In this document: piece by piece, positions 40,222 through 42,497 of the stretch
How positions within the stretch are numbered: the first letter of the stretch is position 1
Layout: every line of letters starts with the position of its first letter
NCBI GenBank assembly: GCA_030595925.1
Contig: JAUVLC010000001.1
Location: 1,476-65,475 of the forward strand
Origin: Clostridia bacterium
Lineage (GTDB): Bacteria; CBDUZB01; JAGLHV01
DNA length: 64,000 nt
Direction: 5' to 3'
Program-made: the position numbers and the translations under genes
Notes under the pieces: model-generated
Seen by the model: only the letters and a program-made list of their open reading frames with translations
The model's database searches: none
Told to the model about the DNA's origin: nothing

Positions 40222-41955
40222 TTACTTTCCTTTATAAATATCAAAATCTTTTCCATAAGGATTGTCATCCCAACCATCTGATGAACCAGGACTTATATCT
40301 TTTGTATCTTTTCCTTTTTTCCCTTTTTCCTGTCTACTATTAGATAGACCTAACCAGTGTTTTTTATTATGAGGATCTCCATACCAAAATACAGGAGAAC
40401 TATTCTCTTGTATTTTTATAGTGTCTATAGCATTTTTTTTAAATGTAGAATGGGAAATTTCAATTCCGTCTGCTTTTTTATAATCTTCACTAAAAGCATT
40501 TCCATGTCTTTCTACACGAACTTTTATATGTTTGGAATCTTTACCATTTAATTTATCCCAAGCATAATATTTATCAAGCCTTTCTCCTGGACTTTTCCCT
40601 GCCTCAATGTGAGCACTCAAAGTTGCACCCACAGGTTTATAAGCACCATTCTTTTTTTCTAAAACAACGCATATCCACTCCCAGTCATGCTCGTGCGATT
40701 GTCTAATTCCAAGAAACCAATGATTCCATTGATTAAGTGGATAATAGTAAAAACACTCTATTACTGCATAAGGTCTGCCATTTTTATCTTTTTTGTTTGT
40801 AACAACATGATAATAAACAATAGGAGGATAGTCTTTAAAATTTCCTTTTTCTACCTCAAATTTATTCCAGTTATCGTCCCATTTCTCTTTATTCTTATAG
40901 TCTTCCGGACGTTTATAAAGATTCCATTTTTCTGCATTCATCTCAATATTATCATCCCAATTATCTGACTTTAATCCATTCCAATTATCAGGTTTTGGTG
41001 GAAATTTAACCTTAAAATCATACTTTATAGGATGAACATACGCTTCTTTATCTAATCTAATTGTAGGAAGATACTCCAAAGGATCAAGTTTAATTTCTAT
41101 TTTCAGATTGTGCTGCATTCCCGTTTTACATTTTTTTTGTACAACTTCTTTATGAGGAATAAGAATTTCATCACCGAAATAAATAAGGTCTGGATTTGGA
41201 TGTTCCGATTTAAATTTATTTTTTTGACAATCATAGATTCTTTTCCAATCACTAAACCCATATCTTTTTGCTATACTTGATAAATTTTTACCTTCTTCGA
41301 CTGAATGAATTTTACTGATAAATGTTACTTTACATTCTCCAGAATCAATATCTCTGATATCAATAAAACCATTACTATCAAGTTCACCCTCTTTCTCAGA
41401 ACCATCAGGAAGAATTATTAAGTATTGTTTATTAGATACTGCTTGGTTATCATCTTTATCAAATAACTTAATTTTAATCCAACCAATTTCTATTTTTAGA
41501 TTATGTTCTGTTCCCGTTTTACATTTTTTTTGTACAACTTCTTTATGAGGAATAAGAATTTCATCACAGGGATAAATAATATCCGGATTTGGATGTTTTG
41601 ATTTAAACTTATTATTTTGACAATCATAAATTCTTTTCCAATCACTAAACCCATATTTTTTTGCTATACTTGATAAATTTTCACCTTTTTTGACCGACTG
41701 AATTTCACTAATAAATGTAATTTTACATTCTCCATAATCAATATCTTTGATTTCAATAAAACCATTACTATCAACTTTACCCTCTTTCTCAGAACCATCA
41801 GGAAGAATTATTAAATATTGCTTATTAGATACTGCCTGATTATCGTTTTTATCGACCAAATTAATTTTAATCCAATTTTTCTTGGGAGGTTTTTTGACTA
41901 TAATATCTTTTATTTCTTTATTAGTATTTGATTTTAATACTTTTCCATTACTCAT
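40222..41955 (-). CDS. candidate PAAR-linked effector: 2x(beta-sandwich + LysM) with a C-terminal NLP/NPP1-like toxin domain
   Basis: Two LysM repeats (GENLSSIAKKYGFSDWKRIYDCQNNKF...DEILIPHK); the C-terminal domain has YYYPLNQWNHW...QSHEHDWEWICVVL matching the NLP pattern Y.PKD...GHRHDWE.VVVW; its start is 11 nt after the PAAR stop. Confidence 0.55.
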   Translation of the reverse strand: MSNGKVLKSNTNKEIKDIIVKKPPKKNWIKINLVDKNDNQAVSNKQYLIILPDGSEKEGKVDSNGFIEIKDIDYGECKITFISEIQSVKKGENLSSIAKKYGFSDWKRIYDCQNNKFKSKHPNPDIIYPCDEILIPHKEVVQKKCKTGTEHNLKIEIGWIKIKLFDKDDNQAVSNKQYLIILPDGSEKEGELDSNGFIDIRDIDSGECKVTFISKIHSVEEGKNLSSIAKRYGFSDWKRIYDCQKNKFKSEHPNPDLIYFGDEILIPHKEVVQKKCKTGMQHNLKIEIKLDPLEYLPTIRLDKEAYVHPIKYDFKVKFPPKPDNWNGLKSDNWDDNIEMNAEKWNLYKRPEDYKNKEKWDDNWNKFEVEKGNFKDYPPIVYYHVVTNKKDKNGRPYAVIECFYYYPLNQWNHWFLGIRQSHEHDWEWICVVLEKKNGAYKPVGATLSAHIEAGKSPGERLDKYYAWDKLNGKDSKHIKVRVERHGNAFSEDYKKADGIEISHSTFKKNAIDTIKIQENSSPVFWYGDPHNKKHWLGLSNSRQEKGKKGKDTKDISPGSSDGWDDNPYGKDFDIYKGK

Positions 41956-41966
41956 TACTTAAATCC

Positions 41967-42497
41967 TTACCCCTTTATTTTTATTTCATAATCTCCTACT
42001 TGTACTTTACATATTCCTTCCGGTAAATCTTCAATAAACATTTCTCCGTTTTGCGTTGTTTTTCCCTGTATCACTTTACCATCCGGTGCAGTAAAATGAA
42101 AGTCTTCATTAGTAAGAATGTTACCCTCAGAATCTTTAACCACCGCTTTAAACTTATGTTTATCTTCTTTCTTAGGTTCTTCACTTGCGGTAGCGGCATT
42201 ACCTGGTGGACTTGTTCCAATGCTCACCATTAGGTCGCCCATCAGAATACTTGCTGCACAGGGTGGACCTACTATATCTCCCATACAAGCCGCGGGTTTG
42301 CCTTCGATAAGGACAGAAGGCACTCCCTGCATAATCGGTGTTACCGCATGAGGTACAGTTCCTGAAACAAGAGGACAACTCTGCATATCCCCCATTCTGG
42401 CTGCAGGTTTCCCACCAATAAATACTGTCCCTGCGCCCTGGGTTATAACCCCTCCATGAGTTGTCTGGTCTCCCATCCTTGCTGCCTGTCCCGGCAT
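41967..42497 (-). CDS. PAAR-domain spike-tip protein with a C-terminal beta-sandwich extension
   Basis: Three PAAR motifs (GKPAARMGD, MGDMQSCPL, GKPAACMGD); C-terminal ~60 aa extension; RBS AGGAGGG. Confidence 0.85.
   Translation of the reverse strand: MPGQAARMGDQTTHGGVITQGAGTVFIGGKPAARMGDMQSCPLVSGTVPHAVTPIMQGVPSVLIEGKPAACMGDIVGPPCAASILMGDLMVSIGTSPPGNAATASEEPKKEDKHKFKAVVKDSEGNILTNEDFHFTAPDGKVIQGKTTQNGEMFIEDLPEGICKVQVGDYEIKIKG

Follow-up and report, generated by a model that had tools for sequence, protein, structure and literature searches.

A PAAR gene and its putative cargo, a LysM protein with an NLP-like C-terminal domain, in a strain-variable slot of an Afp/PVC-like eCIS locus

Organization of the locus

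The window, i.e. the whole stretch of 64,000 nt that was analysed, encodes two eCIS_core/DUF4157 proteins, a CIS_tube protein with LysM, gpD, two gpV/VgrG-like tips, gp25, Baseplate_J, CIS12, CIS13 and an AAA ATPase, a collection that includes the eCIS core set. Sheath and cap genes were not seen within the window, and the operon starts at or beyond the window end. According to the sequence-only reading, a PAAR gene is followed 11 nt later by an ORF with two LysM domains; the ORFs and Pfam matches bear out both the coordinates and the features. The second gene of this pair, which we refer to as the cargo gene, sits among the baseplate genes gpJ, PAAR, Cis12 and Cis13, and the pair as a whole lies in an Afp/PVC-like eCIS baseplate operon, which also encodes a separate PG_binding_1 protein.

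Positions 59348-59998: CIS_tube+LysM protein
Positions 41967-42497, minus strand: PAAR gene (ORF of 176 aa)
Positions 41956-41966, minus strand: spacer of 11 nt between the PAAR stop and the cargo ATG; 8 nt ahead of the latter it contains AGGA, a Shine-Dalgarno-like element
Positions 40222-41955, minus strand: cargo ORF (577 aa), downstream of the PAAR gene
Positions 39133-39990, minus strand: Cis12/gpI-type baseplate protein (PASTA and Tail_P2_I; Pfam, NCBIfam), on the right flank

The Cis12 gene product matches Tail_P2_I of Pfam (E 8e-17) and CIS12_fam of NCBIfam (E 1.5e-25). The cargo gene is also present in an independent JGI assembly, with 0 mismatches, and the spacer is kept, at 13 nt, in a sister locus (L011) that has the same gene order as the locus in the window. 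A scan of the locus for promoters and terminators gave no signal above the shuffle expectation. Toxins are enriched among the genes just downstream of PAAR (PMC8651086).

Domains of the PAAR protein and of its putative cargo

Positions 42213-42497, minus strand: PAAR cone, residues 1-95 (Pfam PAAR_motif, NCBIfam)
Positions 41970-42164, minus strand: prealbumin/transthyretin-like beta-sandwich extension at the PAAR C-terminus, residues 112-176 (translation, BLASTP)
Positions 41887-41955, minus strand: N-terminal leader of the cargo, 23 codons, MSNGKVLKSNTNKEIKDIIVKKP, common to the cargo of L011
Positions 41485-41875, minus strand: module 1, prealbumin-like beta-sandwich plus LysM (TRF, self-BLAST boundaries, Pfam LysM and SpaA)
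Positions 41092-41482, minus strand: module 2, prealbumin-like beta-sandwich plus LysM, tandem duplicate of module 1 (TRF, self-BLAST, Pfam)
Positions 40225-41094, minus strand: C-terminal NLP/Vps62-superfamily domain of 290 aa, residues 288-577
Positions 40678-40695, minus strand: HEHDWE motif, residues 421-426, the equivalent of HRHDWE in the NLP heptapeptide

The PAAR cone is recognized above threshold by the Pfam family PAAR_motif (PF05488; residues 9-76, E 6.4e-21, 74.8 bits against a cut-off of 27) and by T6SS_PAAR_dom of NCBIfam (E 6e-11). Its C-terminal extension matches both beta-sandwiches of the downstream cargo in BLASTP comparisons (E 2e-6 and 6e-6). Transthyretin/prealbumin-like extensions of PAAR proteins have been proposed in the T6SS literature as effector adaptors, and we regard the present extension as a putative cargo adaptor. 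The PAAR proteins of the window and of L011 are identical at 158 of 176 positions (90%), with 97% identity over residues 1-105; 15 of the 18 differences fall at residues 106-176, indicating that the extension has changed more quickly than the cone. PAAR proteins of Zixibacteria and Gemmatimonadota have comparable extensions (SpaA prealbumin-like, 23.2 bits). The Zixibacteria genome shows a parallel architecture, in which the PAAR-prealbumin extension is followed by a gene combining a peptidoglycan-binding module with a toxin-like domain; in the Gemmatimonadota locus a PG_binding_1 ORF, with no recognised toxin-like domain, lies two ORFs further downstream. Scanning of genome contigs with the PAAR protein returned distant PAAR loci only (Zixibacteria, Gemmatimonadota, Bacteroidota), and the corresponding scan of metagenome contigs returned distant PAARs only and no further alleles of the slot.

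The two repeats of a beta-sandwich and LysM, which had been noticed from the sequence alone, correspond to a tandem duplication of 393 nt (41092-41875; 2.0 copies with 89% matches according to TRF), i.e. to modules of 131 aa each. LysM (PF01476) is detected above threshold in two stretches of the cargo (31.4 bits against a cut-off of 20.9), and the beta-sandwich exhibits a weak match to the prealbumin-like fold domain SpaA (E 2.5e-4). A word-indexed homology search with one module found nothing. The idea that the LysM of the cargo was copied from the baseplate LysM of the CIS_tube protein was dropped, because the similarity between them is only generic (E 0.006).

Relationship of the C-terminal domain to NLPs and to Vps62

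The motif string quoted by the sequence-only reading, ...LNQWNHWFLGIRQSHEHDWE..., is indeed the translation of positions 40678-40737. The same reading assigned this region to the Nep1-like signature and named the NPP1 HMM as a check: the motif region is matched, yet the score of 17.7 bits for the whole protein (17.1 for the domain alone) falls short of the curated Pfam cut-off of 21 for NPP1 (PF05630), and the match (E 0.004-0.006) covers only positions 69-139 of the 197 in the profile. Because NPP1 is the sole Pfam family that the domain matches at E<=10 (E 0.006), the motif match exceeds chance, and the evidence at the level of the family agrees. The closest homologue, P0002, passes the NPP1 cut-off with 23.5 bits, and 11 of 32 family members match NPP1 at E<0.1. 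When 177,635 PDB sequences were searched with the family profiles A1 and A5, all seven matches (7/7) were NLP crystal structures (best E 1.1e-4); with three different family profiles, NLP chains were the sole matches to the domain and were aligned on the same residues. A phmmer search of PDB sequences with the full 577-aa protein and a word-indexed homology search with the C-terminal domain found nothing, and the remote relatives of the domain were found only by an exhaustive phmmer search.

The heptapeptide of NLPs is GHRHDWE (PMC6743777), to which SHEHDWE of the cargo is identical at 5 of 7 positions (G->S, R->E), and HEHDWEW is near-invariant in the 32-member family alignment. In an HMM alignment with 5NNW, H421, D424 and E426 correspond to H101, D104 and E106 of NLPPya, so that three of the four cation ligands, which we take to be D93, H101, D104 and E106 (the numbering having been checked on the 5NNW alignment), appear to be kept; the position of the fourth, D93, is occupied by N408, and this position is N in 27 of 29 family members and D in 2. 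NLPs of types 1-3 possess conserved disulfide(s) N-terminal to the motif (PMC6743777). The corresponding N-terminal Cys pair is absent from the cargo domain, whose two Cys residues (in ECFYYY and WICVVL) are within the motif strands. Moreover, four near-invariant positions of the family are altered in the cargo domain (Y114C, H115F, R120L and N166G in domain numbering).

The predicted model of the domain is moderately confident (pLDDT 60.5, compared with 31.7 for single-sequence AlphaFold), and the fold that it displays is an NLP-type beta-sandwich. A Foldseek search with this model against the PDB returned nothing at E<=0.001, and none of the top 50 matches was an NLP. The best structural match in BFVD is a Megaviridae protein annotated as Vps62 (263 of 290 columns aligned, prob 0.97), and the layout of the whole domain is closer to that of bacterial Vps62-like proteins (hhalign 97.8%, E 8.7e-13, with a homologous core). 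The cargo domain does not match the Pfam family Vps62 (PF06101) at E<=10; the relatedness becomes visible only through the class B relatives, one of which (P0013) scores 28.8 bits on Vps62, and through the BFVD match. About 90 residues before the core and about 75 after it are common to the cargo domain and Vps62-like proteins.

The word-indexed profile search of a collection of 5.8 billion clusters recovered 27 members of the domain family, most of them T9SS-secreted; the Por_Secre_tail (T9SS) is present in 18 of 32 family members, and signal peptides, identified by eye, are carried by family members as well. Elsewhere, members are stand-alone secreted proteins adjoining Peptidase_C25 genes, and one of them (P0008) constitutes the N-terminus of a 4422-aa protein of adhesin-like appearance. 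No CIS genes were found beside other family members in the neighbourhoods examined. The 577-aa cargo possesses neither an N-terminal hydrophobic signal peptide nor a T9SS tail; it has lost the secretion signals of its homologues. Taken together, the HMM, the family profiles and the predicted fold uphold the relatedness to NLPs that had been noticed from the motif, and neither of the contrary outcomes named in the sequence-only reading was observed. As judged from sequence comparisons, the C-terminal domain is NLP-like rather than a member of the curated NPP1 family, and falls into a small, uncharacterised clade of bacterial proteins within the NLP/Vps62 superfamily, one that bridges NPP1 and Vps62.

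A variable slot downstream of the PAAR gene

In L011, the slot after the PAAR gene is occupied by a 297-aa effector of the Tae4 amidase family (PF14113, E 1.8e-18, 67 bits), followed by a lipoprotein-like ORF of 152-169 aa in the position of an immunity gene. The two loci differ by a cassette:

Positions 40026-41904, minus strand: strain-variable cargo cassette (effector body and 3' untranslated region), with no similarity to positions 10598-11986 of L011

The latter region encodes Tae4 and the lipoprotein-like ORF. The flanks of the cassette are 88.5% identical to L011 on the PAAR side and 91% identical (nt) on the Cis12 side. The two loci cease to be homologous some 50-65 nt after the start of the cargo ORF (the BLAST alignment ends at window position 41905, and a pairwise alignment with the cargo ORF of L011 has faded by roughly codon 22), and homology sets in again some 50 nt ahead of cis12. 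Within the shared leader, which follows the pattern MSNGKV-x2-SNT..., 14 of 23 residues are identical to those at the beginning of the Tae4 cargo, a protein that is unrelated in all other parts, and the leader sequence has no other occurrence within the window. As the similarity of the two cargo genes is confined to the first ~23 codons, they occupy a variable cargo slot. This slot lies directly downstream of PAAR, its content differs between close relatives, and it may contain a recognised effector. The earlier suggestion that the cargo is a candidate effector is thus strengthened, as beside a 90%-identical PAAR exactly the same slot accommodates Tae4. No immunity-like ORF follows the cargo gene of the window, since the 196 nt after its stop hold only an ORF of 16 codons.

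A second variable slot is located after the first gpV-like tip; the best match of its proteins is weak (Amidase_6, E 0.03). The fibre-like tip of a neighbouring gene also differs between the two alleles.

Proposed mechanism and alternative explanations

We consider it fairly probable that the gene pair encodes a spike-tip protein and its cargo, the latter in a strain-variable slot of an Afp/PVC-like eCIS. According to this scenario, the pair would be co-expressed with the baseplate genes, and the cargo, lacking both Sec and T9SS signals, would be attached at or near the PAAR tip via its leader and/or contacts between its beta-sandwiches and the PAAR extension. Contraction of the sheath would then drive the spike, PAAR and cargo into the target envelope, where the LysM modules may anchor the cargo to a glycan that contains GlcNAc (peptidoglycan or chitin), and the NLP-like domain may bind the head-group of a membrane glycolipid via the putative conserved cation site formed by N408, H421, D424 and E426 and damage the membrane. 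Loading onto PAAR is hinted at only indirectly, by the homology between the beta-sandwich of the PAAR extension and those of the cargo and by the faster change of the extension. The idea that loading relies universally on homotypic contacts between beta-sandwiches is weakened by the Tae4 allele, which in BLASTP comparisons is dissimilar to the modules, with nothing significant beyond the leader. Its relationship to NLPs suggests that the C-terminal domain may be cytolytic. As to the target, the alternative Tae4 allele and the two LysM modules point to possible action in the bacterial envelope rather than on plant sphingolipids. A bolder version, in which the PAAR tip of the eCIS takes interchangeable leader-marked cargoes and one of these is the first CIS-delivered membrane toxin of the NLP/Vps62 superfamily, strikes us as rather unlikely.

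The cargo could instead be a non-toxic accessory of the particle, such as a lectin-like adhesin or a receptor-binding or baseplate-associated protein, whose C-terminal domain and LysM only bind glycans or glycolipids of the target or the producer. Such a role, which we deem rather unlikely, would agree with the position of the gene between those for gpJ, PAAR, Cis12 and Cis13, with the structural use of LysM folds in CIS baseplates (as in the CIS_tube+LysM protein), with the missing immunity gene, with the adhesin-like P0008 and with the variation of the neighbouring fibre-like tip. NLPs bind glycolipids, and the case of HaNLP3 illustrates that the heptapeptide is no guarantee of toxicity, since some NLPs are non-toxic although their heptapeptide is intact (PMC6743777). 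However, the same slot in L011 holds, behind the same leader, a member of the bona fide effector family Tae4, and the homologues of the domain are stand-alone secreted proteins beside secreted proteases. It is improbable that the cargo acts on the producer's own wall, as a LysM-anchored factor of particle release or envelope remodelling that is not injected. eCIS are released by cell lysis, and both the two LysM modules and the PG_binding_1 protein of the same operon would fit such a factor, but a signal peptide, a holin and a recognised hydrolase domain are all missing, the NLP fold is not known from any peptidoglycan hydrolase, and the slot is shared with an effector that is followed by an ORF where an immunity gene would lie.

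Two further explanations concern the C-terminal domain itself. Its HxHDWE motif, its NLP-like fold and the match to NPP1 and to no other Pfam family could be taken to mean that the cargo is a genuine NPP1-family cytolysin aimed at plant GIPC sphingolipids, as in phytopathogens. This is very improbable, given the score below the Pfam cut-off, the missing type-1 disulfide and signal peptide, the N in place of D93, the flanking regions shared with Vps62-like proteins, and an alternative L011 cargo that targets peptidoglycan. Least credible of all is a chance resemblance, with the domain having no evolutionary relation to NLPs. The weak match of the single sequence to Pfam (E 0.004), the empty Foldseek result against the PDB and a useless single-sequence model would be expected in this case, but three family profiles would hardly retrieve NLP chains as their only matches, with the same residues aligned, nor would 11 of 32 family members match NPP1.

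Implications

NLPs have been studied almost exclusively in plant pathogens, which secrete them and in which they serve as cytolysins and immune elicitors. Our literature search for NPP1/NLP together with contractile injection, T6SS or PAAR found nothing relevant; in the literature searched, the pairing of a PAAR-linked eCIS cargo with a toxin-like end of the NLP superfamily has not been described before. Here, a remote NLP/Vps62-superfamily domain devoid of the secretion signals of its homologues appears to have become coupled to the spike tip of an injector resembling a phage tail, which would represent the use of this fold as a modular toxin warhead in the sense of polymorphic toxins. This suggests targets other than plant GIPCs for the NLP/Vps62 fold, and action on the bacterial envelope, if true, would add a new range of targets to the NLP superfamily. 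Under the bolder version outlined above, the 23-aa leader would be a natural, portable PAAR-loading tag. The two natural alleles, which combine the same PAAR and the same 23-aa leader with unrelated cargo bodies, offer a ready-made experiment on the recognition of PAAR-linked cargo in eCIS, a process that matters for the engineering of programmable protein-delivery particles. Apart from these functional considerations, the analysis defines a small uncharacterised protein family bridging NPP1 and Vps62.

Comparison with known systems

The cargo domain aligns residue for residue with NLPs (NLPPya 3GNZ/5NNW, MpNEP2 3ST1, HaNLP3 6QBE and PcNLP485 9WSC) over the pattern aromatic-Y-x-P-x-(D/N)...H-x-H-D-W-E...S-x-H. 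However, it comprises about 290 aa compared to about 200 aa in NLPs, its family exhibits the additional conserved motifs P-x-L-Y-F, DD-x3-ENN, GN, GDP and PPW, and the cargo lacks a signal peptide, is fused to LysM modules and has its gene behind that of PAAR within a CIS locus. With Vps62/DUF946-like proteins and the bacterial class B relatives (P0006, P0007, P0009, P0010, P0011 and P0013) it shares the N-terminal strand motif P-x-L-Y-F...Y-P; on the other hand, the class B relatives have HEGDWE where the cargo has HEHDWEW.

Validated eCIS toxins can contain LysM, as exemplified by EAT14, which has the architecture DUF4157-LysM-Transglut_prok (PMC11297309). The cargo resembles EAT14 in being a multi-domain eCIS-encoded protein with LysM beside a toxin domain, but it has no N-terminal DUF4157 domain and its toxin-like domain is different; in contrast to EATs, it is linked to PAAR rather than located at the operon end, where the cargo region usually lies. 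With regard to the PAAR/VgrG-linked cargo effectors of T6SS, the locus is of the eCIS type by its genes (DUF4157, Cis12, Cis13 and the Afp15-like ATPase) and not a membrane-anchored T6SS, the toxin-like domain is NLP-like, and no immunity gene accompanies this allele of the cargo. Nonetheless, what the locus has in common with such effectors, among them the Tae4 amidase family, is the position of the cargo gene right behind PAAR and a slot whose content varies between close relatives, and the transthyretin/prealbumin-like extension of the PAAR protein described here is comparable to the adaptor domains with which such effectors are associated.

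The PAAR/cargo gene pair and its locus

The gene directly downstream of PAAR encodes a 577-aa candidate cargo protein, hereafter the cargo or the query.

41967-42497, minus strand: PAAR gene, 176 aa (PF05488, 74.8 bits, E 6.4e-21)
41956-41966, minus strand: 11-nt spacer, with AGGA 8 nt ahead of the cargo ATG
40222-41955, minus strand: LysM/NLP-like cargo gene, 577 aa
40225-41094, minus strand: C-terminal domain of the cargo, residues 288-577 (NPP1 match)
40678-40695, minus strand: HEHDWE string in the translation of this domain

The sequence-only reading had described a PAAR gene followed 11 nt later by a protein with two repeats of a beta-sandwich plus LysM and a C-terminal HxHDWE motif. 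This description is borne out by the ORFs, by the HEHDWE string, by the Pfam matches to PAAR and LysM (the latter twice, at 31.4 bits with a cut-off of 20.9), and by the finding that the first 287 residues of the cargo represent a 393-nt tandem duplication (41092-41875), whose copies are 89% identical and comprise one small beta-sandwich and one LysM each. The beta-sandwich exhibits a weak match to the prealbumin-like fold (SpaA, E 2.5e-4). The cargo gene recurs with zero mismatches in an independent JGI metagenome assembly and thus is not an assembly artefact.

From ~29.7 kb onwards, apart from a toxin-antitoxin pair described below, the genes of the window all lie on the minus strand and form a contractile-injection-system (CIS) locus. 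Housekeeping genes (AlaRS, RecA, FtsK, PNPase, IF-2 and NusA) occupy 1-24 kb, and therefore the window is chromosomal; the source bacterium is uncultured, has a low GC content (~33%) and possesses T9SS components. Domain matches identify the following members of the locus, all on the minus strand:

two eCIS_core/DUF4157 proteins
a CIS_tube+LysM protein
a gpD-like hub and two gpV/VgrG-C-like spike tips
gp25 and Baseplate_J, then the PAAR/cargo pair
Cis12 (PASTA+Tail_P2_I) and Cis13
FHA, VWA and an Afp15-like AAA ATPase, further along

Several other elements are interspersed in this locus. The baseplate operon also encodes a T9SS protein resembling PorV (49989-51518) and an NHL-repeat protein bearing a T9SS sorting tail (51716-53698), and a homologue of the 23S rRNA intervening-sequence protein (36365-36763; PF05635, E 2e-27) lies between the gene for Cis13 and that for a T9SS-tail protein. 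A PIN/AF2212-like toxin-antitoxin pair (44011-44747, plus strand) is inserted between Baseplate_J and a fibre-like gene and is bracketed by ~180-nt repeat copies (43754-43933 and 44828-45008), a third copy of which (57603-57793) is found between gpD and the first gpV tip. Long intergenic tandem arrays of heptamers (TATCCTG x61.6, GAGCATA x15, AGAGCTA x7.6 and TTCACGA x5) are located on either side of the PAAR/cargo pair and of Cis12/Cis13, at 38567-38602, 38695-39127, 42511-42632 and ~40030-40090. Two gaps are the sole differences between the window and the JGI assembly.

A polymorphic slot behind PAAR

The cluster of proteins 90% identical to our PAAR includes one encoded on a 30-kb ENA contig (P0044; locus L011), where the gene order is the same as in the window: gpV tip, PorV-like, PG_binding_1, gp25, Baseplate_J, fibre-like gene, PAAR, the gene that follows it (X), and Cis12. 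BLASTN and pairwise alignments delimit the slot as follows.

L011 9998-10597 = window 42500-41905: 88.5% identity; PAAR, spacer and first ~17 codons of X
L011 10598-11986 vs window 41904-40026: no identity; cargo body
L011 11987-12737 = window 40025-39274: 91% identity; Cis12

The two X proteins have only their first 23 residues in common (MSNGKV(L/G)(K/Q)SNT..., 14/23 identical), behind which the bodies are unrelated, and therefore the slot after PAAR is a polymorphic cargo slot with a conserved leader. In L011 it holds a recognised effector family, as the 297-aa X protein has a type VI amidase effector of the Tae4 family at its C-terminus (PF14113; 67.2 bits, E 1.8e-18); a 152-169-aa lipoprotein-like ORF follows where an immunity gene would be. 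No immunity gene follows the cargo gene in the window. The proposal that the 577-aa protein is a PAAR-coupled candidate effector thus gains from the Tae4 in the same slot, the common leader and the conserved flanks. The C-terminal beta-sandwich of PAAR is homologous to both beta-sandwiches of the cargo (E 2e-6). Between the two PAAR alleles (41967-42497 vs L011 10001-10531), 3 differences are located in residues 1-105 and 15 in residues 106-176; with 15/18 substitutions in the beta-sandwich extension, the extension evolves faster than the cone, as would be expected if it co-varies with the cargo.

L011 retains the PorV-like gene, lacks the NHL gene and the PIN/AF2212-like pair, and has similar intergenic heptamers. 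The fibre-like protein encoded just upstream of PAAR (42723-43661) has a signal peptide, a CTHRC1_C C-terminus and a weak match to Bdellovibrio MAT_N; its N-terminal part shows 76% nucleotide identity with L011 (8832-9734) and 82% with a paralogue in the window (34771-35616). The C-terminal tip of this protein is not the same in L011 as in the window, so a putative binding tip changes along with the cargo. The spike is split into a hub and two alternative tips, with additional ORFs after the first tip:

57928-59049, minus strand: gpD-like hub
56106-57572, minus strand: first gpV/VgrG-C-like tip
55202-56026, minus strand: 274-aa protein without Pfam match
54840-55205, minus strand: 121-aa protein with a hydrophobic start
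53890-54699, minus strand: second gpV/VgrG-C-like tip

The equivalent place in L011 (1-1676) contains unrelated genes, a partial ORF (of which the contig covers 196 aa; weak Amidase_6 match) and then one for a 363-aa signal-peptide protein, which suggests that the region after the first tip may be a second variable cargo slot.

The C-terminal domain is related to NLP and Vps62

The NLP/NPP1-like character ascribed to the C-terminal domain from sequence alone is supported. NPP1 is the sole Pfam family matched, over the motif region (profile positions 69-139), at 17.1-17.7 bits (E 0.004-0.006), i.e. below the curated cut-off of 21; hence the domain falls outside the curated NPP1 family. Besides the query itself, phmmer run exhaustively on 1.84 billion representative proteins returned just 14 remote relatives. 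The relatives fall into class A (T-H-E-H-D-W-E-W), with N-terminal signal peptides as read by eye, and the Vps62-like class B (H-E-G-D-W-E), which are homologous according to hhalign (97.8%, E 8.7e-13). Some relatives exceed curated thresholds, e.g. P0002 that of NPP1 (23.5 bits), and P0013 both that of Vps62 (28.8 bits) and that of NPP1 (21.1 bits). The class A profile retrieved 27 more members, one of which bears the NCBI name 'NPP1 family protein', while several are T9SS-sorting proteins of Candidatus Eisenbacteria; among the 32 aligned family members, 18 contain Por_Secre_tail and 11 match NPP1 at E<0.1.

Searches of 177,635 PDB sequences with three family profiles (A1, A2 and A5; best E 0.0078, 0.0018 and 1.1e-4, respectively) point in the same direction. 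A1 and A5 gave seven matches each, every one an NLP crystal structure, and A2, in which the T9SS tails were left in, gave the same seven chains plus seven others that align mostly to the tail region. The NLP matches of all three profiles align on one common block. NLPs lack the N-terminal 'P-x-L-Y-F ... Y-P' element common to classes A and B, and the query domain lacks the NLP disulfide. We conclude that this is a domain of the NLP/Vps62 superfamily whose core and motif are of the NLP type and whose overall layout is Vps62-like.

In the HMM alignment, D93, H101, H103, D104, W105 and E106 of NLPPya correspond to N408, H421, H423, D424, W425 and E426 of the query; the D93 position is Asn in 27/29 family members and Asp in 2/29. 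An AlphaFold2 model from the 32-sequence alignment is of moderate confidence (pLDDT 60.5, pTM 0.66); its core (residues 90-215) is predicted with reasonable confidence. Foldseek found no significant match to it in the PDB, and among viral models the best match was a Vps62-annotated Megaviridae protein (263 columns aligned, prob 0.97). The query departs from its own family at four near-invariant positions (domain 114, 115, 120 and 166: Y->C, H->F, R->L, N->G), which could reflect altered specificity, altered activity, or decayed or lost activity.

Possible origin, mechanism and target

The query has neither a signal peptide nor a T9SS tail, whereas its homologues carry these signals and adjoin Peptidase_C25 rather than CIS genes. 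The C-terminal domain has evidently switched from a secretion route to the injector. Its closest homologue, P0002 (213 aa, 41% identity, signal peptide; L002, ENA ERZ23498374 scaffold_375512), comes from the same sample series as L011 (TANS21-1), with a similarly low GC content (36%), and may be a secreted paralogue in that same lineage, one that could have served as the source of the cargo domain.

We propose that PAAR and the cargo would be co-expressed, that the cargo would be loaded at the spike tip via its leader and/or the PAAR extension and delivered upon contraction, that LysM would tether it to a GlcNAc glycan, and that the NLP-like domain would bind a membrane glycolipid in a cation-dependent manner and perturb the membrane, by analogy with the membrane action of NLPs (PMC6743777, PMC8916740). 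As regards the target, bacterial envelopes are suggested by the Tae4 allele and the LysM modules; the lack of an immunity gene and the NLP analogy suggest a molecule absent from the producer, e.g. a eukaryotic sphingolipid, or chitin-bearing cells.

Comparison with known systems

According to published surveys, genes just downstream of PAAR are ~3x as likely to encode toxins as upstream ones, and a share of at least 16% of the PAAR genes has a link to eCIS (PMC8651086). Some validated eCIS toxins contain LysM, an example being EAT14 (PMC11297309). A cargo role also fits the lost secretion signals, the homology of the PAAR extension to the cargo, and similar PAAR-extension loci elsewhere. In a Candidatus Zixiibacteriota MAG (CP070674.1; L006 9989-13680), an orphan PAAR with prealbumin-like extensions is followed after 13 nt by a 560-aa PG_binding_1 protein with an AHEIGH metalloprotease-like motif (HExxH) and by a HEAT-repeat protein, with a Zn-dependent phospholipase C and a Clp_N+AAA ATPase further downstream; this looks like an uncharacterised effector island. 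A Gemmatimonadota locus is a looser parallel, with a PAAR extension present but the PG_binding_1 ORF, in which no toxin-like domain was recognised, two ORFs further down.

Each component is already known by itself, namely polymorphic effectors linked to PAAR, eCIS toxins with LysM, and NLPs. In the literature searched, we found no NPP1/NLP tied to a contractile injection system, and the full-length 577-aa architecture occurs in one sequence cluster only among ~15 billion proteins. The two loci provide a natural two-allele system, in which PAAR and leader are the same and the warheads differ, and the allele in the window would extend the NLP superfamily to injected cargo.
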